A stretch of 64,000 nucleotides of DNA from Eledone cirrhosa (taxonomy: Eukaryota): the NCBI GenBank assembly GCA_964016885.1, contig OZ024743.1, forward strand, positions 321,160,001 to 321,224,000, written 5' to 3'. The translations under genes and the position numbers were made by a program. Shown here piece by piece: positions 948 to 26,332 of this stretch. Each line of letters opens with the position of its first letter. Position 1 is the stretch's first letter. The notes below the pieces were generated by a model, which saw nothing but the letters and a program-made list of their open reading frames with translations, did no database searches and had not been told where the DNA came from.

Positions 948-1182
948 TATATAACATTTTATCTATAAGCAAACCTTCTGAGTTTAAAATATAGGATTTG
1001 TTTTATATAGATAGCTGTTAGATTTAAGCACCTGTACTATACTGTGGTGACATGATTTGACTCCCAGCTCTCACATGAATAAATTGGTCTTTTACAGAGT
1101 GAATAAAAACCAATCATTTTATGTATTTGTTTATTGAAATTAATTTAAGAAATCATTAATTATAATTTGTATGATATTCCAG

Positions 1183-1329
1183 CAAACAATATGCATTGCT
1201 CATTTGACAACAATATCTGTGAAATGACTATTGATGGCAACGATGAATATACATGGAAACGGATGCAACCTAGCCAGTCCCCTCAAGGAAATGGACTTGA
1301 CAAGGATCACACAACTAAATCTAGATATG
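1183..1329 (+). CDS. Exon of MAM-domain protein (MAM N-terminal part)
   Basis: ccag acceptor, gtaatt donor, 147 bp, phase 1/1. Translates NNMHCSFDNNICEMTIDGNDEYTWKRMQPSQSPQGNGLDKDHTTKSRYG, matching the MAM CxFxxxxC...W...DHT...G pattern. Confidence 0.85.
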
Positions 1330-2789: not shown

Positions 2790-4756
2790 AACAGCTTCTC
2801 TTTGGCTCTGACAATAATGTCTAGGACTTTAGCAACTTGGAGAGTCTGTATCATCCAAGAGTGGGCAACAGAATCAAATGCTTTCCTGTAGTCCAGCCAG
2901 TCCTAAGTTATCGCTCCTCTGACATCGCAACTTTGTTAATTAGAAGTTGTTCAGCACACCCAAACACCGTTCTTTTCAGCTGCTTGTTCATCTGTGATGA
3001 TGTCATTACTGTTGCAGTGATCTTGGAGGAATAAGTTCAGGTAGGTTCTATACATCGTATCCATCGGTTACTGGCATTTAGTGGGTTGGTCATTTTTTGT
3101 CAAGTGGATGCCTTTGTTCTTGGGGACCAGTATTGTTTGTGCTAATGTCAACCATTCTGGTATATGTGCATCTGCCTTGAGATCTTGCTGGTAGAGGTCG
3201 ATAAGGTACATCCAATAGGTTATTAGTCTTTTGTACCAGTAGCCAATAATCAAGTCTCTTCATGTGTTTTCCTATCACAATCTCAAAGGTATCCTCATTT
3301 ATTTCGTATATTTTTGTTGTAGTGTAGCAGCAATAGTTCTTTTGGATTTCTTTTAGCCAAACTGCATCTTGGTTGAAATTCTTATTTTCACCCCATATTT
3401 TTCTCCAAAAGGAATCTATGTCTTTCTGGGATGGGGATTCAGTGACATTTATTACCTTGCCTTTCATATCTCTATAGACTGATGTTTGGTTTCGCCTGAA
3501 TCTTTTATTAATTCATTTTCTTTTATCTACACTCTTCAGCATCGAAGCTTCTCGCTGACAGCTCTCAAATCTTGTTTGAGGGTGATCAGCTTATATTGTA
3601 GAGTTCTGGTTGTACTGTCAACAAACATCGTTTCTATTTCATTTTTCACTCTTTGTTGGCGAGGAGTGAAGTTTTTTCTCTTTGTTTGCATGTAAGGAGC
3701 ATTGTCACATATCCTAGAGTTTTTCGTTAGTAAGCAAACTTTTTTTCTATTTTAGTTATATATGATGGTATTTTTGGTGGTGTTTCGTTCTTGTTAATAT
3801 CTCTGTTATCATCAAGATAATGCCCCACTGTCGTTGCTAGAGCATATAAACAGGTGTTGATTTGCTAAAATGTGGGGGTTTTAATTTGTCGTAAATATTC
3901 ATAATAGCAGGTATTTGGTTTTCAGTATTGTTGTTTTATTACGTTCAGCAATTACATGAATTAATTTCTCTCTGGAAGAGATCGTTGAGGGAAAATTTCA
4001 ATTGTTTATACTTTTAATTATTATTATCAATAGTGTTTTCCACAACAGTGAAGGCTGACTCAGATGGTACAAGTGGTGTAAAATTTCTTACGGGCATAGT
4101 TGTTTCAAGGCACTGTTCGGCCTGGCTGCTAGGAAGACTCGTAGCATAGCGACCTGTAGCATGTGCTGTTGATTCCATGTTTGTTCTGGGGGACTAACAA
4201 TTAATAATATTTATCTTATTTTTACGTTCAACAAAAGTTGCTTGTTGGCGTAATTGTTTGGCTGTGAAGTGATTTAGGTCTGGATGTATTTCGTCCCAGT
4301 GTAGTTTCATTCTGTTCATATAGACAATGGATGGATTTTTTTGCCATTTTATAACAATTAAATAAATCATCATTAAGTTTGCAACTCCATGAGAATTGCA
4401 ATTTTTAATTTCGGTTTATTCTTTAGCTACAACTAAATAAATTTTGTTTACTATTCTCATTGATTTACTTCGGTAAATTGTTCTCGTTGCTTGTGTTCGG
4501 TAAATTGTTTTTGCTGTTGATGTTGATGTTCTACACAACCATTTTGTTTGTAACAAATCCTTGTAAAATGAATTGTGTATTTATTTGGATATCTCTACGA
4601 ATTCGAATAAAAGGTGTCTCGGGTGGATATAGTTAGATGAATATCCAGTTATTCAACACGACTGGTAGTTATGGCAATACTGTCAGAGATAGTATTCATC
4701 TTAAATTTAATGAATACTTTCCCATGCCAAAATGTGAGACTGATCGCGTTGACTGT
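2790..4756 (-). mobile_element. Degenerate R4/Dong-like non-LTR retrotransposon, 5' part (N-terminus and start of RT)
   Basis: Frameshifted fragments YMNRMKLHWDEIHPDLNHFTAKQLRQQ, FWRKIWGENKNFNQDAVWL, IIGYWYKRL, PEWLTLAQTILVPK, GCAEQLLINK, WLDYRKAFDSVAHSWM. Clade call is from motif recall. Confidence 0.75.
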
Positions 4757-5250
4757 CTATATATGTATGTATGTATGTATACAACATTTTTGGAATGTTT
4801 TATATATTTTTACTGTTCCATTAATGTATTGTACTTTTAATTTCCTAACTATTTGTGTTCTTTCTGTTCCTGTGAAGCCTAGCTTCTCAAGATTGGTATT
4901 GAGGCAGTTACTAACATATCCCAGTGCCCCAATAATCACAGGCATAAATCTGAAGGTGTAATCAGGGTGGAGTATCTGCAGATTTCTCATCAGTTCTGCA
5001 TAAATGTTCTCCTTTTCACTAATCTTTGATATTATATTGGCATCTGCTGGGAAGCTAACTTCCACTACTGTGCATGCTTTCTTCTCCCTGTCCCATATCA
5101 TAATATCTGGTCTGTTATGCCTGCATTTTATTGGAGTTTTTACTGGAACATTCCAGCAGTACTCTTTCATATTATGTATATGTATGTTTTCCACATTGCT
5201 GTAGCTTTTAATGTGTTTATTATCGGGGCTATCTTTTCTACGGATTGCAT
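4757..5250 (-). mobile_element. 5'-truncated non-LTR element, restriction-like endonuclease (REL) C-terminus
   Basis: ORF 4757-5194 has HNRPDIMIWD...VVEVSFPAD...KENIYAEL...PVIIGALG (PD-(D/E)xK REL motif); flanked by (TACA)n on both sides. Confidence 0.85.
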
Positions 5251-5320
5251 TGTATGTATGTATGTATGTATGTATGTATGTATGTATGTATGTATGTATG
5301 TATGTATGTATGTATGTATG
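5251..5320. repeat. (TATG)n microsatellite
   Basis: Direct reading. Confidence 0.95.
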
Positions 5321-5464
5321 TTATATCTATATTATTATGGAGTTTAAGGAACTAAACTTAAATTCATTAGTTACTTATCCATGAAGCTGCAATTATGAGT
5401 TTTACATATCAAAATACATTTGCAAATGATGGAAAGAAACCCTTACATATATAGTTATCTCTTC

Positions 5465-5860
5465 TTTTACTGGTGATGGAATGCAGGAGACAGGATTAAG
5501 TACAAAAATTGCAGTAGCTGGTGCAGTAATCTGCCAACTTCAGCGTTAAGTAATCGGAGGACGGGAGGTGGGTGTAAAGGCCAAACTCGCTCTCTTTAAA
5601 TCAGTATTTGTGCCAACCCTTACCTATAATCATGAATCATGGGTAATGACCGAAATAATATCATCGCGAATATAAGCGGCCGAAATATGGTTCCTCCGAA
5701 GGATCTTTGGGGTAACGTTACCTGATAGAGTGCCTAGCTCGGAGATCAGAGACTCATTCCAGGTAGAGCCACTACTTCTCTGAATTGAGTGATCCAATTC
5801 TATGGACATGTGGTTAGAATGTCTCAGGATAGAATCGCTGGACAGATTTTACGGGCAAAG
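5465..5860 (+). mobile_element. Degenerate RTE (Rex3/Expander-like) C-terminal fragment
   Basis: AKLALFKSVFVPTLTYNHESWVMT...AAEIWFLRRIFGVTL...YGHVVRM with in-frame stops. Confidence 0.75.
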
Positions 5861-5899
5861 GAAAATAAAGTAATGTTGTGAATGAAGGATATAATTCTT

Positions 5900-6090
5900 T
5901 GACAGCAATTTTGGTGGGGTAGTCGATTATGTCGACCCCAGTACTTAACTAGTACTTTATTTGTTCGATCCAAGAAAGATGAAAGGCTCTCGACGGTATT
6001 TGAACACCGAACGTAGAAAGTGATAACTAAATACTGCAAAGTGGTAACTAAATGTTCGACGCTCTACTAATTACTGCCAATCCATCACCC
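5900..6090 (-). mobile_element. tRNA-derived SINE copy (degenerate)
   Basis: Shares agtcgatta..tcgaccccagt..gtactttat..gatgaaagg..tttgaac with copies at 6715, 6944 and 7845. Confidence 0.6.
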
Positions 6091-6326
6091 TAATGAATGA
6101 TATAACAACACGATATTTACCATTTAAAATGTTTAAAGTATTACTTTAAGGAATTACTTTACAGTTTTCTAAACTGAACCGTTTTATATATACATATTAG
6201 CCGAAATCCAAACCAAATGAGACTGATAGTTGTCATTATGCCATGTTCTGGTAAGTATATTGTCAACAAATCACATAGATGCATTATTTTTCATATCTTT
6301 GAACATTGTATATTTAAATATTACAG

Positions 6327-6567
6327 GGAAATATATGCTAGCCACTGGAGGTATTCCCCTAAGAGACAAAACAACACTGGCAACCAATAGCTTCACAAAT
6401 AACATGAAGAGTCTTAAATTCTACTATCACATGTATGGAGAAGACACAGGAAGCCTAAATGTCTATATTAAAAGTACAAATGGAATTAACACTAGGATAC
6501 TATCATTAAAAGGCAGTCTAGATGATGAATGGAAATATGCATGCATACCTCTGTCAATAACATTTGG
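6327..6567 (+). CDS. Exon of MAM-domain protein (MAM middle part)
   Basis: ttacag acceptor, gtaaga donor, phase 1/2. GKYMLA...TTLATNSF...LKFYYHMYGEDTGSLNVYI...KGSLDDEWKYACIPL carries the MAM FYYHMYG..GxLxV and G....W motifs; joins in frame to 1329. Confidence 0.9.
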
Positions 6568-6714
6568 GTAAGAAAAATATTTCGATTTTAACATCTTTTG
6601 GAAGTTAATTGCTTATTTTGTAGTAAAACTGAAAATTTTAGCACAAGTCTTTGGTTGATTATAGATTTTGACAGACCAACAAAGAAAAAGAAAACCGTGC
6701 AGTAAGAATACACG

Positions 6715-7127
6715 ATCTCCTGGGCAAAATTCTTTAGAATATTAGCACAAGGACAGCAATTTGAGGGATGGAGAAATTAGATTATACTTAACTCGTACTT
6801 TATTTTATTAACACAGAAATGATGAAAGTAGGGATGACCTTGGTGGTATTTGAACTCAAAACGTAGAAATCATCACGAAAAGGCCACAAAATATTTTGTC
6901 AGATACTCTACCGATTCTACTGCCCTTCGCCTGTGTAATAATTGTTTCTACTTTTGGCACAAGGCCAGCAATTACCCAGTACATTACTGGTACTTTATTT
7001 TATCGACCCCGTAAGGATGAAAGGCAAAGTTGACCTCGGCGGGATTTGAACTCAGAATGGCAAGGGTCATAACTCTCTGCGTCAAAGCAAGGCGTCCGAC
7101 CCTCTACCGATACTGCCAATCCACCAA
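6715..7127 (-). mobile_element. Two adjacent tRNA-derived SINE copies (about 6715-6925 and 6944-7127)
   Basis: B-box-like GAGTTCAAATCC on the minus strand (about 7041-7052); shared body ggtactttattttatcgacccc..ggatgaaaggcaaagttgacctcggc. Confidence 0.65.
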
Positions 7128-7205
7128 TGACTTTATAATTCACCTTGACAACCCATGTAACAATGATTTGACAGTTCACCTCTGCCTTCTTCTGTAATAC
7201 TCAAT

Positions 7206-7595
7206 TAATTATTCCCCTTTGAATAAACTCTACTATATGAATGACTTATTTTATTGTCGTAAGGAAGCGGAGTGAATTATTCCCCTTTGAATAAACTTTA
7301 CTATATGAATGACTTATTTTATTGTCGTAAGGAAGCGGAGTGAATGATTCCCCTTTTAATAAACTTTACTATATGAATGACTTATTTTATTGTTGTAAGG
7401 AAGCGGAGTGAATTATTCCCCTTTTAATAAACTTTACTACATGAATGACTTATTTTATTGTTGTAAGGAAGCGGAGTGAATTATTCCCCTTTTAATAAAC
7501 TCGACTATATGAATGACTTATTTTATTGTCGTAAGGAAGCGGAGTGAATTATTCCCTTTTGAATCAACTCTAGTCTATGAATATCTTATTTTATC
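7206..7595. repeat. 68-bp minisatellite, about 5.7 copies
   Basis: aaggaagcggagtg recurs at 7261, 7329, 7397, 7465 and 7533. Confidence 0.95.
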
Positions 7596-7844
7596 AAAAT
7601 GTGTCGGAGTATTGCGAAGCTGTCACCAGATATTTGAATTTAAAATATAGAAGAACGAATATAAATATTCAAAATTCATTATTTTCTTAAGTATAAGACT
7701 GTAGATATAATGGTAGAGAACAATCGATTATACTAACTCGTCTAGTTGACTTCTGTAGAGAACCATGACATATATAGTGTGTTTTCAAATTGTATTTTTT
7801 TTCTGATATGCTTTGATCTTGAGATTCTACAAATTACATAAATA

Positions 7845-8050
7845 ATGGTTTCTGATTTAGGCACCAGGCCAACAATTTGGGGGATGAGAAGTCGATTAAA
7901 TAGACCTCAGTGCTTTATGGTTCTTTATTTTATTGACCCTGTAAGTTTGAAAGACAAAGCTAACTTCGGCAAGATTTGAACATAAAGGGACGTAACTATA
8001 TGTCGTAAAGCATACTGTCTGATGTTCTATCGATTACTACCAATCTACCA
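7845..8050 (-). mobile_element. tRNA-derived SINE copy
   Basis: Same family blocks as 6944-7127. Confidence 0.6.
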
Positions 8051-9091
8051 CCCTTAGTTCACATAAATAATACTGGTGGTAGAATCCCATGAGAGAACAT
8101 CTGTGTAAGCTATATTCTTTCTTATACACTACACTAAGCAGAAAGAAAGGGAAATATAGACATAGAAAAACAACGGAAGAGACATCAAATAAACTTTCCC
8201 ATTTATCATATGTCATAGAATATAATGTATGTGTGTGTGTGTGTGAGTGTGAAGGACCTTAATTTTTATTTTACAAATTGAATCTTAAGGCTCTTAAAAA
8301 CTTGTTCCATGGCAACTCATGGCTAAAAAATAAGATCTACAATACATGGAGAAAGAAACCCTCCTGACAAAGAACAAAACAACAACTCAATAATAATAAA
8401 AAGTAACAAACTAGACAGCATTTACTCTGAACTGCAATTGTTGCAAAACCACTCTCTAAATAGCGAAGTATGCCTTCATGCATTGGATATCATTCACACC
8501 TCCAAAACTGCAGTTGATCTTTCTGATCCTTTCGCAAAAGGATCTCCATTATATTTACAGAATCCACTTTTTCCTCAATTTCTTAATGATGATAGTTCTG
8601 TTGGCATTACTCCCATGGAGAAAACCTCCACCTTCCCTCTTTCTTTACTTTGCATCCAACTCCACATTGCATACACTTGATAAATTTCTTCCAGATCTAT
8701 CCACTTCCACTCTATTGAATACAACACTCAATCTATACCCACAGTGTGCTTGAAAATAACTCCAGTTGCTTTAAACCAGCTGGATCACTAGTAATGACAA
8801 TGTCCCTTCCATCACCTTACAGCTACCCCCATTCTCACCTAACATTTCAATCTCTGTCTTTCTCTCTCTTCACAGGGATAGAGCTTGATATTTACAAACA
8901 TATTAAAGTGTGTCCCATTCCCAATAAGTAAAAATCCTCTGAAACTGACAAATGTTTAACAAGATTCACTTCCAATATCACAAAACTATTGGAGACAGCT
9001 ATTAATAATAACTTCCACCAAAACCTTGAATAATCATCGTCATCATCATAATCGTTTTTAGATCCATTTCATCATGCTGGCATGGGTGGCA

Positions 9092-9340: not shown

Positions 9341-9701
9341 AGGCAGATATCAGATATAGGTTAGATGGAATCCTTTGAGACAATGCTTTACAGCCAAATC
9401 CTCTTCATGATGCCATCCCCTTTTGTCACCTTTTACAACATGCAGAAATATCGTGTAACTATTCTAAAAACTAGGATACACATCCTAAATAGCCACTAAA
9501 CTTGTTCTTGTTCGTATACAAACTCTCTCTAACCACCAGTTTATTTTCCCACCTTTATTGAGCACCAATCTTCAATGTGTAGCATTCATTCTACAGTCAC
9601 ATGCATACATATACACACACACACACATATATATATATATACATATATATATGTGTGTGTGTGTGCGTCTCTCTCTCTTTCTCTCTCTCTCTCTCTTTCC
9701 C

Positions 9702-11800
9702 GCACCCCCACTATCTACTTCCTCCCAAAACTCCACAAACCCGATAACCCTGGCCGCCCCATCGTCTCCGCTTGCAACTGCCCCACCGAACTCATCTCCG
9801 CCTTTCTTGACTCCATCCTCGCTCCCCTCGCCACCACCCTCCCCTCTCACATCTTCGACACCAACCACGCCCTTTGCCTGTTCGACTCCCTCACTTTCCC
9901 ACCCGACCCACACCCCCTCCTCTTCACACTAGATATCAAGTCCCTCTATACTGTCATCCCCCACGCCGGCGGCCTACGTGCCCTCCGGCACTACCTCAAC
10001 CTTCGCCCCTCCCCATCCCCATCCACCCACACCCTCCTACGCCTCGCTGAGCTGGTCCTCACCCTCAACTGCTTCTCCATCTCGAGTGAGTTTTACCAAC
10101 AGATCACGGGGGTAGCCATGGGCACAAGAATGGGCCCCAAACTATGCCAACCTTTTCGTTGGTCATGTTGAGGCCCAAATCTTTTCCCGGTACACCGGCC
10201 CCACACCCGAACAGTATGGTCGTTACATCGACGACTGTATCGGAGCCACGACCCTTGCCCGAGAACATCTTGACTCTCTTCTGCTCCTTCCACCCCTCCC
10301 TCCATTTCACCACCTCTATCTCCACCACCCACGTCCACTTCTTTGACATCTCCGTCGCCATCGACCCCTCCCACCGCTCCCTCGTCACCTCCGCCTTCTT
10401 CAAACCCACCGACTCCCACTCCTACCTCGACTTCACCTCCTCCCACCCAACACACACAAAACACTCCATTCCCTACTCCCAACTCATCCGGATCCGCCGC
10501 CTCTGCAGCCGAGAAGCTGACTTTGAGTCCCAGGCCCTTTCCCTAGTCAGCCATTTCATCCGGAGAGGTTACCCTACAGATCCACACACCCCTCGGCCTG
10601 AACTCCCCACCCCTATTCCTTTAGCCTTCGTTCGCCCCCATTCCCCCCCACACACACACATCCCCCACTAACACACTCTTCCATTTCACCGCCCACCCCA
10701 CGACTAATAATACTAGCACCAGTAATACTACCACCAGTAATACTAACACCCACTAACACCCCCTCTACCACACACACACCAGTACACTACACTCCCTCCT
10801 CCGTCTCCAACACCTTTTCTCCCCCTCTCCCTCTTCCCGCTCCACCTACACCCCTTCACACACACACACACATCCCACTAACACCTCTACTAATATACAC
10901 CCCATCCTCCCACATCACCACCTTCCCCTCCACCTTTCACACCTACCCATCCTTTCCCCTGTCCACCGCACCTCCGCACACACAGACACACAGTCCTCAC
11001 CACATACAGACCATTTCTCCACCTGTCATCCTCCTCTACTGCTATCTCTTCACCCTGCGTTGACCCCCTGACCACTTCCTGTTGCGCGCGCACCTCACAT
11101 CTCTCCACTTCCGACCACCACTAATGGATTCCACACCACCGGTCATCGTTCCTGGTATCCACTCTATAACATGAGAGATATCCAACATCTTATCGCACAC
11201 TCCGCGGAACTACCTTAGGAACTTACCCACGTACAAACACTCACATTTTTTTCGAACCACGCCACCTTCAGCCACACCACTTATAAAGACAAACACACAC
11301 GTGCATATCCCCACATATGCACACTCAGCCTCCGGAATCCCCCCCCCCCTCCATCCACACGCATGCACGCACACACCGATTTACACCTAACCCCACGCAC
11401 ACACACACACGTACACCTACACCTACACACATACACCACCATCAGCCCTCCCCGCTCGGACCCCCTGCTTCCCTCTCCCAACTCCACCTGCCACCACCCC
11501 TACATGCCTCACACTCTTCCACCACTTATTTATTTTTATGTTTATTTTTATGTTTATTTTTATTTTTATTTGTACTTCTTCAATCGTTTTTCCTCCCTTT
11601 TCTCTCCCCCTCTTTTTTCTAAATTTCTTTCCCCAACTCGCCCACATACCCTCGGAACTCTCTTCCTACCAACTTTTCTCCTGATGAAGGGTTTATGCTC
11701 GAAACGTCGTTACGCACCCCCACCCCGCTCTCAAAAGCGTGAACCTAATAAATTCTTATTTGTATTGCCTCTCTGTTTTTGTTCCCGTCTAAGTTTTAAC
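9702..11800 (+). mobile_element. Penelope-like element, truncated RT plus 3' region/pLTR
   Basis: IYFLPKLHKPDNPGRPIVS, LFTLDIKSLYTVIPH, QITGVAMGTRMGP, (frameshift) YGRYIDDC, KPTDSHSYL..SSHP..KHSIPYSQ. No GIY-YIG domain seen. Hammerhead-like motif at 11681 and AATAAA at 11747. Confidence 0.9.
11681..11708 (+). ncRNA. Minimal hammerhead-ribozyme-like motif (Penelope pLTR type)
   Basis: CUGAUGA-A-GGG-UUUAUG-CUC-GAA-ACGU-C with palindromic stem III and GUC triplet; stem I pairs poorly. Confidence 0.55.
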
Positions 11801-11865
11801 TATATCCAAGGCTCTGATACCATCAACACTATACACATAGGGCTGTCATATCTAAGAACTGACTA

Positions 11866-11921
11866 ACTGCCTGATGAGGTCATAGCCATTCAATGGCTAT
11901 CATCGAAATATATATAGCAGT
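11866..11921 (+). ncRNA. Type I hammerhead ribozyme, canonical core
   Basis: Stem I ACUGC/GCAGU; CUGAUGA; long stem II GGUcAUAGCCAU/AUGGCUAUcAUC; GAA; palindromic stem III AUAUAUAU; AUA triplet, predicted cut after 11916. Confidence 0.85.
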
Positions 11922-11962
11922 AAATAAAGGATTATGAGTTCATGCAATTGACTTATGTTTCG

Positions 11963-11997
<35 letters not shown>

Positions 11998-11999
<2 letters not shown>

Positions 12000-12066
12000 G
12001 GGGTCGATAAAATAAAGTACCAGTAATGCACTGGGTAATTGCTGGCCTTGTGCCTAAAGTAGAAAC

Positions 12067-12068
<2 letters not shown>
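11998..12068 (+). mobile_element. SINE 3' fragment between (TA)n tracts
   Basis: Reverse complement of about 6942-7012. Confidence 0.7.
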
Positions 12069-12125
<57 letters not shown>

Positions 12126-12136
12126 TAACAGATTAA

Positions 12137-12187
12137 AGTTTAAGCAACGAATCGCTGCTTTCACCCTTAACGGGATCTTCTGAAACT
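12137..12187 (-). ncRNA. Hammerhead-like fold with variant core CAGAAGA
   Basis: Stem I AGUUU/AAACU; CAGAAGA; stem II u-CCC-GUUAA-GGG-u; GAA; stem III AGCAGCG/CGUUGCU; CUU triplet. Confidence 0.6.
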
Positions 12188-12676
12188 AACAAAGTCAATC
12201 TGTAAACGCAGAAGTGGATATTTAAAAAAACGTTGTAACCGGAGGAAGACAGGAAGACGATACTTTGGTTCGTGGAAACGCTCCTTGGCAAAGAATGGGA
12301 AAAAACGAATATAATACGTCATTAATAGGAGAGGTGAAAAACGATTACACGCAAAGACAGACCCACGTTTATGGTATAAAAGAAGTCGTAGACTAATCTT
12401 CTCTTAGGTGGTTCATAGAGACGTTCTCTAGCAATGAACGGAAAAAACGAAGGTAATACGTCATATGTGGAGCGTGGAGAACAATTGCACCCAAGACAAA
12501 ACTTAAGTCGTAGACTAAAATTCTAACTAGGAAACCGAATGATTCTCCGCTTCAGAGTTAAGAATAAAGTAAATAAAATACAATACAGAGGTAATTGAAA
12601 TTAAATAAATACAGCCGTTAATATGCATAAGGAAAGTATATACTTTCAGACGTTCAACCATCTGGCAGGAAGGTAT

Positions 12677-12719
12677 ACGTTGCTGACGATAGCTAATAAG
12701 CTTGAAACTAGTACAGCGT
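12677..12719 (+). ncRNA. Minimal type I hammerhead ribozyme
   Basis: Stem I ACGUUG/CAGCGU; CUGACGA; stem II u-AGC-UAAUAA-GCU-u; GAA; palindromic stem III ACUAGU; GUA triplet, cut after 12713. Confidence 0.85.
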
Positions 12720-12864
12720 TCCTTTGTCAGTGTTGAACAAATGAGCAACGATGATTGCTAGACACTGTACGGCTTAATTCAGGATGTTTGTTTACAAACA
12801 CACCGAACATTATAATAAATGTTCGGTGAATCCATACGTACATATATATATGTGTGCATGTATG

Positions 12865-12932
<68 letters not shown>

Positions 12933-13159
12933 CATACATACATACATGCACACATATATATATGTACGTATACATACTTATATTTAAATAACAGCTGTAC
13001 TAAGAGTGAGGAATGAAATTTCGTTTCATTTTTTCCGTTTATCGTTTTCGGTACCCCGGCCGATTAACTCACTCGATATGCAAATTAGGCTGCTCAGCCG
13101 TTAATATGTATAAGGAAAGTATATACTTTCAGACGTTCAACCATCTGGTAGGAAGGTAT

Positions 13160-13202
13160 ACGTTGCTGACGATAGCTAATAAGCTTGAAACTAGTACAGC
13201 GT
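13160..13202 (+). ncRNA. Minimal type I hammerhead ribozyme, identical to 12677-12719
   Basis: Same 43-nt sequence; cut after 13196. Confidence 0.85.
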
Positions 13203-13341
13203 TCCTTTGTCAGTGTTGAACAAATGAGCAACGATGGTTGCTAGACACTGTACGGCTTAATTCGGGATGTGTGTTTACAAACACACCGAGCATTATAATA
13301 AATGTTCGGTGAATCCATACGTACATATATATATGTGCATG

Positions 13342-13423
<82 letters not shown>

Positions 13424-13456
13424 CAAATACATACTACTGTACGTCTGTATACATAT

Positions 13457-13580
13457 ATAACAGATTAAAGTTTAAGCAAAGAATCGCTGCTTTCACCCTT
13501 AACGGGATCTTCTGGTTAGTTTCAGAAGATCCCGTTAAGGGTGAAAGCAGCGATTCTTTTCTTAAACTTTAATCTGTTAT
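13457..13580. repeat. Inverted repeat (58-bp arms, 8-bp spacer) of the CAGAAGA hammerhead-like family
   Basis: 13457-13514 is the reverse complement of 13523-13580 with one mismatch. Full fold on + at 13518-13568 with a decayed stem III; AATAAA at 13584. Confidence 0.9.
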
Positions 13581-13675
13581 TTTAATAAATATTTGCTCTA
13601 CGGTTCTTATATATTTGATATATATTTATCCCTATCGAGCCCTCTTTGGATTTTAGTCTTCAAATTTATTATTAT

Positions 13676-13758
<83 letters not shown>

Positions 13759-13869
13759 ATATAATATATATAATATATATATTATATATATATTTATATA
13801 ATATATATATTATATATATATTTATATTATATATATATATATTATATATATATATTTATATAATATATA

Positions 13870-14980
13870 TCATCATCATCATCATCGTTTAACGTCCATA
13901 TTCCACGCTTGCATGGGTTTGGATGGGAGTTTTCCCACTTGAGGCTAGAGTGGTTGTCTTGCTCGCATAGGACTGTCTGGCGGGTTTACTACGGCTGGAT
14001 GCCCTTCCTAACACCAACCACATTTACAGTGCGGAACTGGGAGGTATTTACCGCGTTACCTACACGGTCACATTACAGCGTGGACTGTGTGTTTTTTTTT
14101 GACGTGACACCTACACGACCTCATTTGTTTCGGCCTGGATGTTGTGGTACCAACATAACTTTACATTGAAAGGGGCGGTGTTGATGGGGTGGGGGTAGTG
14201 GAACGGGGGTGTATTTTGTTAGAGGTGCCTACTGATGTAGTAGGTTTTACTTTGTATTTAGGTAAGGCGGGTCTTCTCTATTACTGAGTACCGCCAAAGA
14301 TGTCGGTCCAGTGACATTGTCTTGGAGAGGTGTAAGTGTGTGAGGTCAGAATTTATCAAGTCGTCCCAGGTTTTTCTGGGTCTGCCTACTCCGTGGCTAC
14401 CGTCTATTTTTATTGCCCTGCACTTTTTTATACAGCTGTCGTCTTTCATGCGCATCACGTGACCATACCAACGCAGCCTTCTCTCGAGTAAACAACATCT
14501 GATCCCTCTTATTTCTAATTTTTCCCTTAGTTTGTTAATGCTTTGCCGTTCACGTATATTACTATTACACATCCAGCGGAGCATGCAAGCTTCGTTCCTC
14601 TCTAGTCTGCGTATATCCTCTGCACACAATGCCCAGGTCTCACTGCCATGCAACATTGCTGTTCGTATGAAGGCATCATACAGCCTGCCTTTCATTTTTA
14701 GGGAGAACCCTTTAGCAGCTAATAGTGGTATAAGCTCTCTGAACTTTTTCCATCCAGTTCTGACTCTAGCTACTCTACTTTCAGAGCACCCTCCGCCACT
14801 GCTGATTTTGTCACCCAGGTAACGGAAGCTGTCCACTATTTCTATAGAACCCTCTGTGAAATTGAAAAAGCTAGTATTTTGTGGGCACCTGCTGCTACTT
14901 ATTGCACCAGAGCACAGGCCACATGTAAAATCGATGTTCTTAGTTAGCTTACCTGTGATCCCACTACATCTTTTATGCAA
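13870..14980 (-). mobile_element. 5'-truncated RTE LINE
   Basis: ORF 14258-14980 (FRYLGD, LYDAFIRTAMLHGSETW, RRLRWYGHVMRM, GRPRKTW), 3' UTR and (GAT)n tail. Confidence 0.92.
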
Positions 14981-15055
14981 GCATATATCTTATATATATA
15001 TAAATATATATATATAAATATAAATATATATATATATAAATATAAATATATATAT

Positions 15056-15573
15056 ATGTATATATAATGTATTTTGCAATACACTTTAAGCTTAATTAAA
15101 AGCATTTTGAAGACCGTATGCTATTGTTTTAGAGTAGTGACAAATTCACTTACCTTAATCTCAGCAAACAGGGGAGATAAGCCGACAAGACCTTGTTTCG
15201 CATTTATTGCTTTTAATTAAGCATAAAGTGTATTGCAAAATACATTATATATACATCCATATATATATTGCTATTTCAGAGCTCCAATTCTAATTTTTAA
15301 TTTCTGCCTGACCAACAACCGCTCTGTATAATCAGTTCCTGATTATTTACTAGAATTCTATAAGAATATAACATCAGTGATCTCGGCAGACAGGAGGGAG
15401 TAGTTAGCCTTGATAAGCATCAATAAATGCGAAACAAGGTCTTGTCGGCTTATCTCCCCTGTTTGCTGAGATTAAAGTAAGTGAATTTGTCACTACTCTA
15501 AAACAATAGCATACGGTCTTCAAAACGCTTTAATTAAGCATAAAGTGTATTGCAAAATACATTATATATACAT
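15056..15573. mobile_element. Solo pLTR-like unit with inverted partial copy
   Basis: 15056-15209 is the reverse complement of 15421-15573; 15209-15257 repeats the terminal ~48 bp; hammerhead at 15406. Confidence 0.75.
15406..15450 (+). ncRNA. Type I hammerhead ribozyme with U3-A8 core covariation
   Basis: Stem I AGCC/GGCU; UUGAUAA; stem II GCAU-CAAUAA-AUGC; GAA; stem III ACAAG/CUUGU; GUC triplet, cut after 15446. Confidence 0.8.
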
Positions 15574-15586
15574 ATATATATATTTA

Positions 15587-15650
<64 letters not shown>

Positions 15651-15697
15651 TGAAATAACAGGAGGCCGGACTGGTGTAAATCCTTGAAAGGTTTATT

Positions 15698-15755
15698 ATA
15701 CTATGATCATTTCAATGACCGGGTTCCATATGAATCCGGTGATATCATCGGGTAT
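15698..15755 (-). ncRNA. Hammerhead-like fold (core CCGAUGA)
   Basis: Stem I AUAC/GUAU; long stem II with ACCGG/CCGGU; GAA; palindromic stem III AUGAUCAU; AUA triplet; AATAAA immediately downstream. Confidence 0.65.
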
Positions 15756-15953
15756 TGGAATATACCAAAGGAATATGTAAAAAGCCATGGGTCCGAAAAA
15801 TCAGAGACAGAGACAAAGAGGGCGACTGACCAACTAGCATCCCAGCCAGCCGCCCTCAAAGGCGGCTGGCTGATAAGCTAGTTGGTCAGCCGTCCTCTCT
15901 GTCTCTGATTTTTCGGACCCATGGCTTTTTACATATTCCTTTGTTATATTCCA

Positions 15954-16011
15954 ATAGTTGATGATATCACCGGATTCATATGGAACCCGGTCATTGAAAT
16001 GGTCATAGTAT
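15954..16011 (+). ncRNA. Hammerhead-like fold (core UUGAUGA), mirror copy
   Basis: Same fold as 15698-15755 with a different core change and a stem I mismatch; AATAAA at 16012. Confidence 0.55.
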
Positions 16012-16222
16012 AATAAACCTTTCAAGGATTTACACCAGTCCGACCTCCTGTTATTTCATTTATAATTAACTCAGTATTCGCACCACCAACTACACAAACG
16101 AAGGTGGGAGAACAGCACTGCGTTGAGTACTCTTCACAATATTACTCCAGGATTGACCATACGGAATGACCAGTTCTCTCCAGTGGTGAACCAACAAACC
16201 TATATATATTATATATATATAA

Positions 16223-16287
<65 letters not shown>

Positions 16288-16294
<7 letters not shown>

Positions 16295-17700
16295 ATACTT
16301 TGGGAGGGTCATGTTTCCAACAAGAAACACACGCACCAGTTGCTTTCACTTCAATTTATTATAATAAATTTATAAATTTAGGAATTTATAAATTTCCGGT
16401 TATGCCAAACCAATGACTTCCAAATATCTGATCCACCGAAACTCAGCTGTTTCGGACCATACCAAAATCAACATACTGATTGCGGATTTGGTAGGGGTGA
16501 TGAGAAACGTGTCCCGCATGTGCAAGCCCAAAGAACTAGAGAGACACATAAAACACTTCATCCACCGTATGCAGTTCTCCGGTTACAATCAGAGTATATA
16601 GAGGAGCCAGAACCAAATGGGAAAAAATGGTAAATAATGACACAAATGGGACCTGCCCCTTGTATAGGAGCAAATTTTGGAATAGAATAGAAAGAACTAG
16701 GAATAAGGTTAATAGAATAAACTCATGGTATGATAGCAATAAATACCAGAGTGTAATGTTCATCGATACAACCCCTAGAGGTGAATTAGCTTACAAATTT
16801 AGAAGAGCCCTAGATAAACATAAACTCAATATTAAGATAGTAGAAAGACCAGGTACCTCCATAAAAACACTTATTAGCAATACATACCCTTTTCAAAGAC
16901 CTCCCTGTATAGACAAGAAATGTATAATCTGTAAATTAAGCCCCCATATTAACTGTAAAACTAGAAATATAGTATATAGCATAAGATGTACTGAAGGACA
17001 ACGTAGAGATAAGAATATAGTGTACATAGGTGAGACAGCTCGTAGTATAGGGGAACGGATAAATGAACACTGGCGAGACCAAGATAGTAAATAATCATCT
17101 GTACTCTACCAACATGCTAAAATAGAACATAAGGGTAAATTAGAGAACATAGAAATAAAAATAGAATCTACAGACAGAAAAGACGCAATGTTTAGACAAA
17201 TCACAGAGGCAATAAACATAAATGAACTCCAACCAAAATTAAATAGAAAACATGAATGGAACAGCAACATCACAACTTACAATTAAGGACAAAATGAAAA
17301 CACACACGCACATAGAACAAACAACCAACCAGTAACATGTAAATAAACAAATAAATAAACAAATATAAACACACACAGACACCCGGATGTAACACATGCG
17401 CAAACTATGCACACAACACACACAAAAACAAGATGGCGTAGGAGAGAACAAAGGAGAGGCACAAAAACAAAGAAAGGAATCCCCAGTCACTGAAGAGGTC
17501 ACATAATGTGTGACGAAAGAACTTTGATAATATATAAACAATCATCCGGTTGTGGAACCAATCAACCAACCGGAAATTTATAAATTCCTAAATTTATAAA
17601 TTTATTATAATAAATTGAAGTGAAAGCAACTGGTGCGTGTGTTTCTTATTGGAAACAGACCCTCCCAAAGTATAACAATATCGGTTTCAACACACGTTTT
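16288..17700 (+). mobile_element. 5'-truncated Penelope-like element (RT thumb and GIY-YIG) with inverted terminal copy
   Basis: YAKPMTSKYLIHRNSA (thumb); CIDKKCIIC..NCKTRNIVYSIRC..VYIGETARSIGERINEH (GIY-YIG); 16288-16401 is the reverse complement of 17568-17680. Confidence 0.9.
17486..17528 (+). ncRNA. Hammerhead-like motif in Penelope 3' pLTR
   Basis: Stem I GUCA/UGAU; CUGAAGA-G; stem II GUCACA/UGUGAC; GAA; weak stem III AG-AA-CU; CUU triplet. Confidence 0.6.
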
Positions 17701-18676: not shown

Positions 18677-21600
18677 CTAACTCTCTCCTCCCCTGTCGCA
18701 GCCCAACACACCCTGCCATTATCCCACCACCACTGTTCTTCTAGCCCTCAATTTTCCCACCGTTATGGATGGATGAGCTGAGAATAAATTTGAGCAACTC
18801 TGAATCAATAGATGAAATATGAATCTGCGAGCTACCAAGCACCCATGTGAAGCGCCAACCCAGAGACCCTTCCCTACGAGTGTCGACAAATGCCCAAATG
18901 CTAGAGCGAAAGGAAATTGATGTATGCTGTGTGCAAGAGACTAGATGGAGAGGAGAGTCTGCCAGAGTCCTTGTAGGAAAAAGTCGGTGCTACAAATTTT
19001 TCTGGGTGGGAAATGACGATGGGATGGGTGGTGTAGGTATACTACTAGCTGACAAGTAGGTAGATAAAGTAATCTCAGTGTACAGGGTAAATGCAAGAAT
19101 CATTAAACTCAGACTAGTCCTGAATAAAACAATTACCACAATAATATCAGCTTACGCACCCCAATCGGGGCTGCCAGACGAACTTAACGATAGGTTTTAC
19201 GAGTCCCTAATGCACACTACTGCTCTAACAGACGACAATGACTTCCTAATCATCGCAGGAGATTTTAACGGACACGTAGGTAAACACTGCGACGGCTTCA
19301 ATAGAGTACATGGAGGCCATGGGGTTGGCACAAGAAATGACGAAGGATTCAGACTTCTAGAATTCTGCGACGCCAATGACATGTCGATATATAACACAAA
19401 CTTTAAAAAACCCGACAACCACCTGATCACCTATAGATCAGGGGAGCACTCCAGTCAGATAGATTGTATCCTCACCAGAGGACGTGTCAGATGGACGGTC
19501 GTAAACACAAAAGCCTTCCCTAGTGAGGAATGTACATCCCAACATAGCTTAGTTGTCATCGACCTCACGGTCAGAACTAGACGAACCTGGAAACAGAGGC
19601 CAACCTGGAGAAGAAAGATCTGGAAGCTGAAAGTCCCCTCAACCAGTAACAGATTTAAAGATATTTTACTCAACGCCTATGACAGTAAAGAAGAACAGAT
19701 GGAGACATTCAATGTAGAAGAGAACTGGGAGTTCCTAAAAAATAATTTACTAGAGGCGACGGATGAGGTCTGTGGCTGGAGTAAGACCTCAAGCAGGAGG
19801 AGAGTGACTTGGTGGTGGAACAATAAGGTAGATGAAGCAGTTAAGGCCAAGAGACAGGCATGGAAAGAATGGAAGAACGTGGGGAGCAGGGTACATTACA
19901 TAGAGACCAAGAGGGAAGCTAGGCGACAAGTATACTTAGCTAGGAGGGAAGCAGAGGATAGAAAATTCAAGCATGTTTTGCAACGTGAGGACCAGAAACA
20001 GGAGGTGTTCAAGATTGCGAGGCAGTGTGTCAGAGATAGTTGTTATGTCATTGGAGAGAAGTGTATCCGGAATGATAAAGGTGAGCTTGCCCTCACAAGT
20101 GCTGAGAAGAAAGATGCATGGAAGAGTCATTATGATAGATTACTAAATGAGGAGAATGCATGGGAAGAAGAGACCCTACCCCAAGTAGACCCTATAGAGG
20201 AGCCAGCAGTACAAGTCAGCAGCAACGTAGTAAGTAAGGCAATCAAAGATATGAAGATGGGGAAGGCTACTGGTCCATCGGGTATAGCTGCCGAGATGCT
20301 GAAGGCATCTGGGTCTGTAGATCACACTATAACCACACGTATTGTTAACCAGGTAATACTAGAAGGTGACATACCAAAAGATTGGTGCAGTAGCATCATT
20401 GTCAACTGCTACAGAGGTAAAGGCGATACACTAGATAGAGGAAACTATAGAGGTATAAAGTTGATGGACCAGGTCATGAAAGTAACAGAAAGAGTTATAG
20501 CACAGTTGATTAGGGACCGGGTGAAAATAGACGAGATGCAATTTGGGTTTGTACCAGGAAGAGGCACCACTGATGCCCTCTTCCTTGTGAGGCAGTTACA
20601 GGAAAAGTACCTAGCTAAAAGTAAGCCACTCTACTTGGCATTTGTCGACCTTGAGAAAGCCTTTGACAGAGTTCCACGTGCTGTAATCTGGTGGGCTCTT
20701 AGAAAACTAGGAGTAGATGAATGGCTTGTGAAAGCGGTACAAGCCATGTATAGGGGAGCAGTCAGCAAAGTTAGGATTAGCAATGAGTATAGCGAGTAAT
20801 TTAGCGTACAGGTTGGGGTCCACCAGGGCTCTGTTCTTAGCCCCCTCCTGTTCATCATAGTCCTGTAGGCAATAACGGAGGAGTTTAAGACCGGATGCCC
20901 ATGGGAACTCCTGTATGCTGATGACCTCGCACTCATAGCTGAATCTATGGTAGAACTAGAGAATAAATTCCAAACTTGGAAGCAGGGACTAGAAAGAAAC
21001 GGTCTCAAAGTCAGCATGACAAAGACTCAGGTCCTTTTAAGTAGACGAGAAAACAGAACCCAGATCCCCTCAGGGAAATGGCCTTGCTCAGTATGTAGGA
21101 AATGTGTAGGTAGGAACTCTATTCTCTGCCCCAAATGCAAACAATGGGTACACAAGAGATGTAGCGGGATCCCAGGAAGCTTAATTAAGAATGTAGGATT
21201 CACATGCAGCAGCTGTGCTGGGACAGCAAGCAGCAAACAGCCACAGGAAACAAGTACCACCAATCTCTGGGAGGGCTCTGTAGAAACAGTAGACAGCTTC
21301 TGCTACCTAGGTGACCGAATTAGCAGCGGAGGTGGGTGTTCAGAAAGTACAATAACTAGGGTAAGAACGGGATGGAAGAAGTTTAGGGAACTACTACCAC
21401 TGCTAGCTGCAAAAGGCTTCTCCCTCAGAGTGAAAGGCAGACTGTATGATGCGTGTATCCGAACAGCAATGCTGCATGGTAGTGAGTCCTGGGTGCTGAA
21501 GGTGGAAGACTTACGTAGATTAGAGAGAAACGAAGCCTGCATGCTCCGATGGATGTATAACAGTAATATACGTGAACGACAAAGCATAAATGAATTGAGA

Positions 21601-22160
21601 GAGAGACTGAGCATAAGAGGAATCAAATGCTGTGTGCAGGAGAGGCGGTTGCGCTGGTATGGATATGTGATGCGTATGAAGGGTGACAGCTGCATAAAAA
21701 GGTGCAGAGTACTAGAAGTCGATGGAAACCGCGGAGATGACCTGGGATGAGGTGATAAAAGCCGACCTTACCCAATTACACCTCTCAAAGGCAATGACAC
21801 ACGACCGTGACCTCTGGCGTCAAGCAGTAATAGAGAGTACCCTACCTCCCATGGGTACAAGCTGAAGCATATAGACAATATGCCCCCACACCCCCCACCG
21901 CAAGGTGGTCGTGGAGGTGCCACGGCAAAAAGCCACCCAGCCCACACTGTAAAGTGGACATGTAGGCGCCACGAAAAAGGACCCAGCACTCACTGTAAAT
22001 GAGGTTGGTGTTAGGAAGGGCATCCAGCTGTAGAAATCAAGCCAAATCAGTTCCTGTATGAGCAAGGCATGGTCAGCCGACCAGACACTGCCCACAACAG
22101 GACAACCAGTCTAACCCATGCTAGTGTGGAAGAACGGACGTAAAACGGTGATGATGATGA

Positions 22161-22198: not shown

Positions 22199-25100
22199 TC
22201 ATCATCATCATCATCATCATTTTACGTCCGCTTTTCCCTGCTTGCAAGGGTGGGACGGGTCTTATTCAGCACAGCATCTCTCCACTCGTCACGGTCCCTC
22301 GTCATCTCCACCGTGAGCTTCAATGATCTGAGGTCTGTTCTCACAACCTCCGCCCATGTTTGTCGTGATCTACCTCTACCACGTCTTCCTTCAACTGGCA
22401 ATTCCTGGCACTTCTTCACCCATCGGTCATCCTCCATGCGCATCACATGTCCATACCACCTCAGTCTCTTCTCCCGTACACTACATTCTATCCCTCTCAG
22501 ACACAGTTTCTCTCTCAACACATTTATGCTGGGTCGTTCACGCACATTTACACTGCACATCCAACAGAGCATGCTTGCCTCATTTCTCTCCAGCCGTCGC
22601 ATATCCTCTGCAGTTGCTGCCCATGTCTCACTACCATGCAGCATCGCGCTCCTCACACAGGCATCATACAACCGGCCTTTCGTACGCAGGGAGAAACCCT
22701 TCTTCGTCAACAGAGGAAGCAGCTCCCTAAACTTCTTCCAACCCGTCCTTATTCTAGATACTATGGCCTCGGAACACCCTCCTCCCATGCTAATCTGATC
22801 TCCTACGTACCGGAAGCTATCCACCACTTCTATAGCGCCCTCCTGCATTTGAAAAATGTGTCTATCAATGCGACTTCTACTGTCTAATTTCCCTCTACAT
22901 CTACTGCATACATATTTCTCCCTACCTGTTAGTTTTCCTGCTATCCCGCTACATCTCTTGTGTACCAGGATCTGCATTGTGTGCATTTTATAGAATGTAT
23001 GCCAGTTCTTTTTCTGCATATCGAACATGGCCATTTCCCTGACGGAATCAGGGTTTTGTCCTCTTTTCTACTCATCAACACTTTTGTCTTAGCTAGATTC
23101 ACTCTCAGTCCTCTTGCTTCCAACTGCTATTTCCATAGCCAGAATTTATTCTCTAGCTCCTCTACTGATTCGCCTCAACACCTAGCTTCCTTGGGGACCA
23201 CCAGATGACAGATTGGGGTACCCTATCAAAGGCCTTCTCTAGGTCAACAAAGGCTAAGTATAGTGGCTTATTCTTCTCTAAGAACCTCTCTTGCAATTGT
23301 CTCACCAAGAAGAGGGCATCTGTTGTACTCTTCCCAGGCACAAAACCAAACTGCATCTCATCTAGTTTGACCCTTTCTCTAATTAGTTGTGCTAAAATCC
23401 TTTCTCCTACTTTCATAACCTGATCTATCAGTTTTATACGCCTATAATTGCTCCTCTCCAAAGCATCCCCTTTACCTTTGTAGCAATTTATGAGAATACT
23501 GCTGCACCAGTCTTTGGGTATGACACCACCATATATAGCCTGATTGATGATGCGTGCAACCAGTTTAGTGCCTACGTCCCCTGATGCCTTCAGCATCTCA
23601 GCAACTATTCCCGATGGTCCGGCAGCCTTACCATTTTTCATTTCCCTAATCGCCTCTTGGACCCTATATTCGTCAATCTCAATAGCTGGTCCCTCTGTCG
23701 GATCTACCAAGGGTAATTTCTCTCTCTCCCATTCGTTCTCCACATTCATCAGTCTCTCATAATGACATTTCCAGGCCTCCTTTTTCTGATCATTCGTGAC
23801 ACTAAGTACACCGGCATCATCCCGGACACATTTATCTCCAACAACATCCTGATTTGCATTGACACACTGCCTTGCAATGTGGAACACCGCACGCCTCTGA
23901 TCTTCCCGTCGCAGAACATTGGCAAACCTCCTACCCTCTGCCTCCCTGCGTGCTAAGTACACCTGACGTCTAGCTTCTCTCTTAGTGGCTGTATATTCTT
24001 CCCTACTCCCACCCTTTTTCCAAGCCTTCCATGCTAGTCTTTTGTCTCTAATAGCCTTATCTACTGTGCTGTTCCACCACCAGGTCACTCTCTGTCTGGT
24101 TGGAGCTCTGCTCCAGCCACAGGTTTCATCAGTATCCTGCAGCAAGTTGTCATGTAAGAAATTCCAGTTATTATCTATGTCATACGTCTCTAAATCGTAT
24201 TCTTTTTCGTCATATACATCTTGAAGGGCTTTCCTAAATTTGTATTTTAGTGAAAGGTCTTTTAGCTTCCAGACCTTTCTTCTCCACACCTTCCTATATG
24301 TCTCATTCCATCTCTTTCTTACTGAGATATCACTAACAACTAACCTATGCTGTGGGGTACATTCTTCCCCAGGGTATGCCTTGGTATTAGACACTATCTG
24401 CCTGTCCCGCTGCCTAACTAGTAAGAAGTCAATTTGGCTTATGTGCTCACCAGATTTGTAGGTTATTAGGTGATTGGCAGGTTTCTGGAAGTTTGTGTTG
24501 CAAATAGTCAATGTACCCGCATCACAAAATTCAAGAAGTCTCACTCCTTCTTCATTTCTTGAACCGTAACCATGCCCATCATGTACCCCAGTGTAACCAT
24601 CCGGGAGCTGTCCAACATGACCATTGATGTCTCCTCCTAGCATAACGATGTCTCCGTCCTCTGTCATTGCGGTTGTTTGCAAAAGTTGCTCATAAAAGCA
24701 GTCTTTCTCATCTTTGCCTAGGCCTGCTTGGGGAGCATAGGCCGAGATGATTGTCAGTAGTCTCCTACCTACAACTAATCTAAGCTTAATTATTCGATTA
24801 CTAACTCGAACTACCTCTATTGTCTTATTGATCCATTTCTCAGCCAGGAAAATGCCTACTCCCCCTAGCCCATCATCCTTACCTACCCAGAATAGCTTAT
24901 AGCTAAGACGCTTGCCTACGACTAGTCTCGCAGAGGCACCTCTCCATCTCACCTCTTGCACGCAGCACACATCCACCTGCCTTCTCTCCAGCATCTCCGC
25001 TATTTCAGCAGATCTACCTCTGAGAGTGCCAACATTAAGTGTTGCAACTCTGAGATGCGACGTCTTCATATTTTGTGTTGTTCCTATTTGTTGCTGTGCT

Positions 25101-25260
25101 GATAAGCGTTTTGGCATTGATACACTGGTTGGATGCCCTTCCTAACACCAGCGTCACTTTACAGCATGGACTGGGTGCTTTTATTTGTGCCACCAGCACT
25201 AGAGAGGATGTCTTACTAGACTCAAGGGCCCTCTCTACTCCTCCATTTTACAGCATGGTC
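22197..25260 (-). mobile_element. Near full-length RTE LINE of a second subfamily, internal RT deletion
   Basis: 651-aa ORF 23162-25117 (TLNVGTL, VQEVRW, GDINGH, VDLEKAFDRV), then C-terminal ORF to 22222; QG/YADD segment absent; (GAT)n tail. Confidence 0.93.
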
Positions 25261-25991: not shown

Positions 25992-26125
25992 TTAAAAAAG
26001 TGGCTCCAGCAAAAATTCTTGGTCAAAACAATTTTGATTGGTCGGTAGAGGTCATGTGGATAAAAAATTGGTTTTGCGCCAAGATTGAGAAATGACTCTT
26101 TCACAACAAATATGTGTGTGTGTGT

Positions 26126-26221
<96 letters not shown>

Positions 26222-26292: not shown

Positions 26293-26329
<37 letters not shown>

Positions 26330-26332
26330 TGC

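Follow-up and report, generated by a model that had tools for sequence, protein, structure and literature searches.

A dense clump of hammerhead-ribozyme motifs in a predicted intron of Eledone cirrhosa, probably gathered by insertion of Penelope-like ends and non-coding units

We analysed 64,000 nt of the Eledone cirrhosa genome (assembly GCA_964016885.1, contig OZ024743.1, positions 321,160,001 to 321,224,000, hereafter the window), a part of a 379-Mb contig in a 3.0-Gb assembly. A preliminary description, made from the letters alone, had listed ten hammerhead-ribozyme folds within 6 kb of one intron. These motifs belong to eight insertions from seven high-copy families, here called A to F and M. 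With a probability of about 0.85, four of the families are truncated ends of coding Penelope-like elements (PLEs), the three others are units without coding capacity, likely copied by the enzymes of such elements, and the insertions likely gathered here since the elements likely insert at TA microsatellites. The cluster is dense, but it is an ordinary clump and not a special one.

Coding ends and non-coding units

Family A (9698–11800, plus strand) is a broken coding Penelope-like element, identified from its translation, with a reverse transcriptase (RT) at 9701–10580 and a motif at 11673–11720; an own-genome search gave 3150 first-look candidate copies. The RT motifs of A and of the other coding families were judged by eye; Pfam gave no RVT match to the Penelope-like RT frames. 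Family M (11806–11966, plus) is a coding element of which 160 nt of the 3′ end are present, with an intact type I fold at 11863–11924 and a predicted cut after 11916 (AUA). Family C is present twice, as the 3′ end of a Hydra-type coding element on the minus strand (12121–12613, fold at 12134–12190) and as a plus-strand copy (13459–13680) made of an inverted arm (13459–13514), a sense end and a 95-nt tail, whose fold at 13515–13571 is buried in a hairpin. Both C folds have a CAGAAGA core. Family F (16287–17690, plus) is a 5′-truncated coding element with an inverted arm at 16287–16401 and a fold at 17482–17532, predicted to cut after 17524 (CUU). Its coding part (16441–17280) comprises the thumb, a CX4CxxC linker as in Neptune/Nematis, and a GIY-YIG-type end.

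An RT followed by a C-terminal GIY-YIG-type endonuclease was found upstream of the ribozyme end in C (locus L295, where the 713-aa frame is intact), M (L298, Pfam GIY-YIG E=0.004) and F (L301), while A has the RT only. The preliminary description had attached only two folds to coding Penelope sequence. This was mistaken, as M and both C copies are also 3′ ends of coding elements, which brings the coding share to five of the ten folds. An apparently fixed 5′ start of the M copies was discarded as partly an artefact, the query having contained the end of A.

The other five folds lie in units without a reading frame, which run back into their own ribozyme end and occur as tandems and inverted pairs. 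Family B (12612–13459, plus) is a head-to-tail 1.9-mer with intact folds at 12675–12721 and 13158–13204 and predicted cuts after 12713 and 13196. Its unit is typically 437 nt long, and reaches 483 nt in the window through an expanded internal TA tract; its folds have an ACUAGU palindrome and a U-U at the base of helix II. Family D (15038–15591, plus) is a 318-nt unit with an inverted arm at 15038–15209 and a U3-A8 fold at 15402–15454, predicted to cut after 15446 (GUC). Family E (15645–16202, plus) is the 3′ end of a 1,852-nt unit, with an inverted arm at 15645–15861, a 140-nt tail and two mutated folds, at 15694–15759 (minus) and 15950–16015 (plus). Tandem arrays have units of 420–480 nt for B, 318 nt for D and 1,852 nt for E (in L291). 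The description as non-coding modules, first given to all folds other than the two, holds for B, D and E. The retrozyme unit size of a few hundred bases fits B and D and not E. The Penelope or retrozyme origin originally proposed is upheld: RT and/or GIY-YIG sequence lies upstream in A, M, C and F, and B, D and E loop into their own ends. Matches of B, at 74–84%, near C and M elements were rejected, since they fell outside the element ends or in TA-rich sequence.

Copy structure and TA microsatellites

Alignment of flanks, for the best 30 copies per family, showed that copies end at a fixed 3′ position, 20–270 nt beyond the cut site, and start at varying 5′ positions; they bear inverted 5′ arms and, in some cases, tails of about 50–140 nt. 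The coding families display all of 5′ truncation, inverted 5′ copy, optional tail and microsatellite targets, and a PLE layout with tandem and inverted copies, a tail and (TA)n is described in the part of PMC8557442 available to us. Copies in the window are 90–98% like their dispersed relatives.

Sixty evenly spaced 10-kb samples (600 kb) served as genomic background. A tract of (TA)6 or more was found at most 300 nt downstream of 86 of the 101 sampled motifs lying away from sample edges, compared to 25% of random places, and motif and TA-array counts were correlated across samples (rho 0.59). The association with TA microsatellites noted from the window alone is thus confirmed, and the two results together suggest that TA tracts draw insertions. 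TA content is only part of the explanation: the 6-kb cluster holds 16 TA arrays and the preceding 11.6 kb only one, but the following 15 kb holds 14 arrays and no motif at all.

A possible mechanism is that the endonuclease of the element nicks AT-rich DNA, and that reverse transcription begins just downstream of the ribozyme. The ribozyme would then lie in the end copied first, hence the hammerhead even on the shortest stub, and TA tracts may be split by insertions, regrow and attract further ones, so that clumps would form. AT-rich nicking, an RT start inside the RNA and insertion by ribozyme mutants are reported in the available text of PMC11167929. Published accounts of PLE ribozymes and retrozymes, of the origin common to both and of insertion at TA tracts already exist.

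The hammerhead motifs

A hammerhead-family motif is present on the expected strand at all ten positions of the initial list, and a homology scan added an eleventh, a truncated copy at 13466–13514 (minus). The motifs fall into seven families, where at least six had been counted. Folds were screened with a type I descriptor specifying a CTGANGA or TTGANAA core (C3-G8 or U3-A8), helices I to III, and a palindromic or hairpin helix III. Five of the ten pass (11871, 12683, 13166, 15410 and 17490), so that the designation as type I folds holds for one half and fails for the other. These five, all within the 6-kb cluster and all on the plus strand, are the only matches in bases 1–32800, and dinucleotide shuffles of the 6 kb yielded a single match in 300 shuffles.

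The motif of family A (11681) has the core, helix II and an ACGT palindrome, with a helix I of 1 bp, as in the family copies shown. Both C folds, at 12182 (minus) and 13523 (plus), fail because U4 is replaced by A. In family E the cores read CCGATGA at 15751 (minus) and TTGATGA at 15958 (plus), the latter with damaged helices I and III; these mutations are private to the window, and 13 of the 30 best copies have a common intact form. A short palindromic stem III, described initially for most folds, is perfect in five (A, M, both B and E minus) and near-palindromic in three (D, F and E plus), while both C folds have a hairpin. AATAAA, said to follow many folds, occurs no more than 131 nt from where the core begins in eight of ten and no more than 66 nt in five, against 17% of random 100-nt stretches. 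Finally, (TA)6 or more lies within 286 nt downstream of all ten, as the remark that most modules are bounded by (TA)n would have it, except that the tract between the two B folds is internal to the repeat unit.

A scan with the Rfam models (RF00163, RF02275), the first of which had been suggested as a check, found no match at cut-off; the best was Hammerhead_HH9 at 15403–15459, with 20.4 bits against 52. Covariation among copies, the lack of which had been named in advance as a refutation, was detected as compensatory pairs between subfamilies in M and D. A C-G/U-A pair in M was carried by 6 of 20 distinct sequences, a value as high being reached in 0 of 500 shuffles, although the number of covarying pairs was no greater than in shuffles (267/500). 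An A-U/U-A pair in D was carried by 5 of 23 aligned sequences, again with 0 of 500 shuffles as high; the set was 23 of 26 distinct sequences, three with indels or chimeric starts being excluded. Each of these pairs represents one inherited event. This covariation points to selection on the mobile lineages rather than on the copies in the window. A rough scan by eye for hammerheads in scrambled order (CTGANGA, GAAA upstream; C3 cores only) gave eight places in bases 1–32800, three of them known folds and five without evident helices.

Density in the genome

With the same descriptor, 48 intact folds were counted in the 600 kb of samples and none in their shuffles; two of the 60 samples held five folds and one held four. 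Extrapolation gives about 240,000 intact folds genome-wide (bootstrap 150,000–340,000), or roughly one per 12 kb, and 524,000 motifs when decayed ones are included. Exact whole-genome counts are of a matching magnitude, with 22,909 for B, 17,429 for C and 564 for D (reversed-pattern controls, 0), and first-look candidates from the own-genome search, which are lower bounds, numbered 730–3,150 per family. The homology scan found 105 motifs in the samples. The richest 6 kb of any sample held 9 (L165, 1 of 60) compared to 11 in the 6-kb cluster, a comparison that favours the window since the family library was partly built from its own families. Among 20 neighbouring stretches, two had 9 and 10 motifs per 6 kb (L213–L214), mostly from a 310-nt tandem array. 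Motif counts are clumped (variance/mean 2.0–2.5), and of 47 fold clusters over all loci, 31 were seen more than once. To speak of a hot spot, as was done at first, is right in that the density exceeds the mean about tenfold and was the highest seen, but overstated, as comparable densities occur in one sample of 60 and in neighbouring DNA. The suspicion raised in advance, that the modules might sit at background density, is half justified: the density belongs to the upper tail of a distribution whose background is itself very high.

Published loads, obtained with differing methods, are 126,247 hammerheads in the axolotl (28 Gb), more than 6,000 in a coral and about 5,000 in a mussel; for the giant squid, 235 were counted by Rfam, again with different methods (PMC6962438). 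The density reported here may be new. Moreover, since Rfam scans miss these motifs, published cephalopod counts such as that for the giant squid may be far too low.

The 310-nt arrays (L213:7655–L214:2325 and L216:3310–4594) belong to another hammerhead family, with an ACGCGT helix III. They are two-armed, with five units on the minus strand and then 11 on the plus strand: a plain retrozyme array 60–70 kb upstream.

Could the host intron be cut?

It had been proposed that eight of the ten folds lie on the strand of the host pre-mRNA and could cut the intron. The count is right, but it corresponds to seven of eight independent insertions on the plus strand, a bias that is not significant (binomial p=0.07). 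The cost of reaching the active fold, computed with ViennaRNA, is 4.1 kcal/mol for the B dimer (7.7 for the monomer), 5.5–6.1 for M and 7.9–9.4 for F. For D it rises from 6.6 kcal/mol locally to 46 with the inverted arm, and it is 58 for the second C copy, buried in a fold-back duplex. The plus-strand fold of E is mutated and forms part of an inverted repeat of 169 nt (96%), and A lacks a helix I. Of the eight sense folds, mainly those of the B dimer, M and F are thus predicted to be cutters. M and F might cut, either weakly or in dimeric form, and the remaining sense copies are likely silent. The B pair could fold as a dimer and release a 483-nt unit able to circularise; this predicted unit has 31% GC, and its circle would be 70% paired, much of it from the TA tract.

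Experience with related ribozymes calls for caution. In the portions of the sources available, minimal PLE ribozymes cleaved poorly in vitro (PMC4209133), of nine retrozyme dimers from Xenopus only one underwent cleavage in vitro (bioRxiv 10.64898/2026.07.22.740005), and an anole PLE ribozyme required its protein, read ends at the cut site not being found (PMC11167929). As intronic copies number in the tens of thousands, their strand bias can be counted, which would provide a test of whether sense ribozymes are purged by selection.

Alternative explanations

That the folds arose by chance in AT-rich sequence, or through faulty assembly, has a practically negligible probability. In favour of this, the Rfam models remained without a match at cut-off and half of the folds fail the descriptor, but the shuffle result and the whole-genome exact counts for B and C already refute this idea, and the compensatory pairs in M and D also speak against it. 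As for an artefact, contigs from two public runs (of unknown kind) cover the repeats at a depth far above that of the flanks. Less far-fetched, but still improbable, is that all seven families are 3′ ends of autonomous Penelope-like elements, the coding copies of B, D and E being merely unsampled. In its favour, C and M, first taken as non-coding, proved to be coding, the examination covered the best 30 copies per family only, and partial tandems of pseudo-long terminal repeats (pLTRs) can mimic units. Yet B and D form multimers at constant spacing (up to eight and three units, respectively) and, in 30 of 30 loci for each family, share no sequence further upstream than the unit itself. Furthermore, the 5′ part of E runs into its own ribozyme end in the loci examined, with a shared coding extension in 0 of 30, and tblastn with five PLE proteins gave, in a tiny database, no match with an E-value better than 0.004.

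We consider it decidedly unlikely, somewhat more so than the previous idea, that the host kept or gathered sense ribozymes in this intron so as to cut the pre-mRNA and thereby adjust how the gene is spliced or how much product it yields, as has been proposed for CPEB3 and the amniote intronic ribozymes. The mostly sense orientation, the intact and accessible folds of the B dimer, M and F with predicted costs of 4–9 kcal/mol, and the time that a long intron gives for cutting would all suit such a role. However, the copies resemble their dispersed relatives as neutral young insertions would, the E folds and the second C copy are mutated or buried, the other 18 kb of the intron are without a motif in the homology scan, and the strand bias is weak; the Xenopus and anole results argue in the same direction. 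We therefore favour the gathering of PLE ends and of units copied by their enzymes at TA tracts, with the host gene as a likely passive carrier. Several points weigh against this preference: no autonomous partner is linked to B, D or E by sequence, seven of eight insertions face the sense strand (p=0.07), the background represents 0.02% of the genome, with the four largest contigs supplying 40 of the 60 samples, and the cluster, at about ten times the genome mean, has the top 6-kb count seen (11 against 10 and 9).

Comparison with known systems

Hammerheads of PLE pLTRs, according to the parts of Cervera and De la Pena 2014 available (PMC4209133), share with those of the window type I folds, a short palindromic helix III, an extra base after A9 and the U3-A8 variant, as well as many families per genome, mostly as single truncated copies, and opposite-strand pairs 100–700 bp apart. 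They differ in number, 2,000–9,000 per genome as against about 240,000 here (with different descriptors), and a U4-to-A core is not mentioned in those parts. Family C is Hydra-type by its sequence marks, namely RWR (for RWK), DKT, the CxCX5C linker CNCRNRADC, CxxC as CDLC, CxH as CKH, and no CCHH. As in the Hydra clade, from what the accessible text of Craig et al. 2021 describes (PMC8557442), it has one open reading frame with a C-terminal GIY-YIG, DKT and no CCHH, (TA)n insertion, an inverted 5′ copy and a tail; the endonuclease of family M is similar. The clade is reported there with canonical ribozymes, in contrast to the CAGAAGA core of C, and family C also differs in a 3′ untranslated region of about 0.9–1.1 kb and a tail of 95 nt rather than 30–40.

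B and D resemble the non-LTR (long terminal repeat) retrozymes, as outlined in the available part of Cervera and de la Pena 2020 (PMC7229834), in that each tandem unit is non-coding, low in GC and provided with a single type I fold, and the U-U at the base of helix II in B is common to axolotl HHR_Amex2, in the text at hand. The B pair of the window agrees with the definition given by Li, Clavereau and Pollet 2026 in the part available (bioRxiv 10.64898/2026.07.22.740005), namely two consecutive units with complete folds. Unlike these retrozymes as there portrayed, the units of the window have inverted arms and TA-tract insertion sites. Among the unit sizes given in the sources at hand, 51–972 nt, B (437–483 nt) would rank with the longest, and E (1,852 nt) exceeds the range. 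CPEB3 and amniote HH9/HH10, as treated in the available sections of a review (PMC6765202), likewise are sense self-cleaving folds in an intron, the folds here being predicted ones; they are single-copy and conserved, whereas the copies in the window are young and their families number from hundreds to tens of thousands of members. In Octopus vulgaris, a repeat annotation from 2026 has 31 recently active Penelope-like families, and the words ribozyme and hammerhead do not occur in the main text seen (PMC13282606). The locus gives a view of a genome in which dozens of hammerhead families exist in parallel, and is itself an ordinary pile of known element kinds.

A core variant with A at position 4

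In family C, exact copies with CAGAAGA number 17,429 and those with CTGAAGA 499, and A4 was present in 11 of 11 unbiased copies from samples and neighbours. A canonical-core subfamily of C was considered and rejected: of 20 CTGAAGA copies examined, 18 had an inverted arm directly upstream (by inspection; an automatic flag marked 11), one a TA tract and one a normal flank. These inversion junctions (L341–L360) recur at one spot of the core, where microhomology makes the canonical CTGAAGA and helix I is removed. A second, unrelated family with CAGAAGA (L361–L372, L291:6535–6611) had 171 exact matches, with A4 in 99 of the 100 matches listed, an 8-bp helix I and a long helix III. Its subfamilies, about 76% alike, show one compensatory pair in helix III, for which covariation is weak (G-C/A-U in 4 of 11; as high in 32 of 500 shuffles; one of 12 loci, truncated, was dropped). 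A C4 core (CCGAAGA) was seen in two other families (L161:203–257, L215:5552–5606 and L307:8696–8750; L013:1973–2017).

Lunse et al. 2017 reportedly contains about 150,000 variants. Our literature search retrieved no report of an A4 or U4A core, that work and the supplements (Perreault S6/S7, Craig S1/S2, Li tables), which may list A4 cores or octopus motifs, being outside its scope. In the part of PMC3088659 available, U4 is treated as conserved, a viroid U4C has reduced activity, U3-A8 and U-U at the base of helix II are supported, and an A4 core is not named in the text (figure excluded). The U4-to-A core, fixed in family C and in one unrelated family, may be new.

Taken together, these results lead us to a bolder proposal, which we hold only tentatively and rather doubt as a whole. 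The genome would hold intact hammerheads on the order of a quarter of a million, at one per 12 kb the densest load among the figures found; most long introns would then carry sense ribozymes, some of which, such as the B dimer, would cut pre-mRNA and shed circles; and A4, being fixed in at least two unrelated families with strong helices, would mean either that A4 cuts or that Penelope spreads without cutting. Family C, at 17,000 copies with a non-canonical core, offers a test of whether Penelope elements need ribozyme cleavage.

Setting of the cluster

The cluster apparently sits in a 23.8-kb phase-2 intron (6568–30365) of a plus-strand MAM-domain gene, predicted from DNA by a donor and an acceptor in phase. 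It lies between an exon for the middle of the domain (6327–6567; Pfam MAM 54–123, E=4e-10; GTAAGA donor at 6568) and one for its end (30366–30460; MAM 129–158, E=6.6e-5), and the start of the domain is at 1183–1329 (MAM 1–41, E=1.9e-4; AG/GT borders). These in-phase borders agree with the one-intron location given previously.

A 38-bp satellite with higher-order repeats occupies 32829–64000 and runs on into L220–L221, about 50 kb in all. It apparently lies within the MAM gene, as MAM-like exons appear again on the plus strand about 20–44 kb beyond the end of the window. At 25995–26631, (TG)n/(CA)n repeats underlie an almost perfect, non-coding palindrome of some 640 nt, which was the source of spurious Rfam miRNA matches. 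The cluster intron also contains a 68-bp unit repeated 5.7 times (7207–7594), without a hammerhead. Several copies of long interspersed nuclear elements (LINEs), in which Pfam recognises endonuclease, RT and PHD domains and which we take to be RTE, are found at 13875–14985, 19060–21750, 22225–25141 and 27300–28400, some of them bounded by (ATC)n. Pieces of a very high-copy repeat, presumably SINE-like (short interspersed nuclear element), lie between TA tracts at 11997–12069 and 6940–7125 and had the top depth in the run-depth comparison. Decayed minus-strand remnants of retroelement coding sequence were recognised by eye in the preceding intron, at 2780–3300 and 4760–5250.

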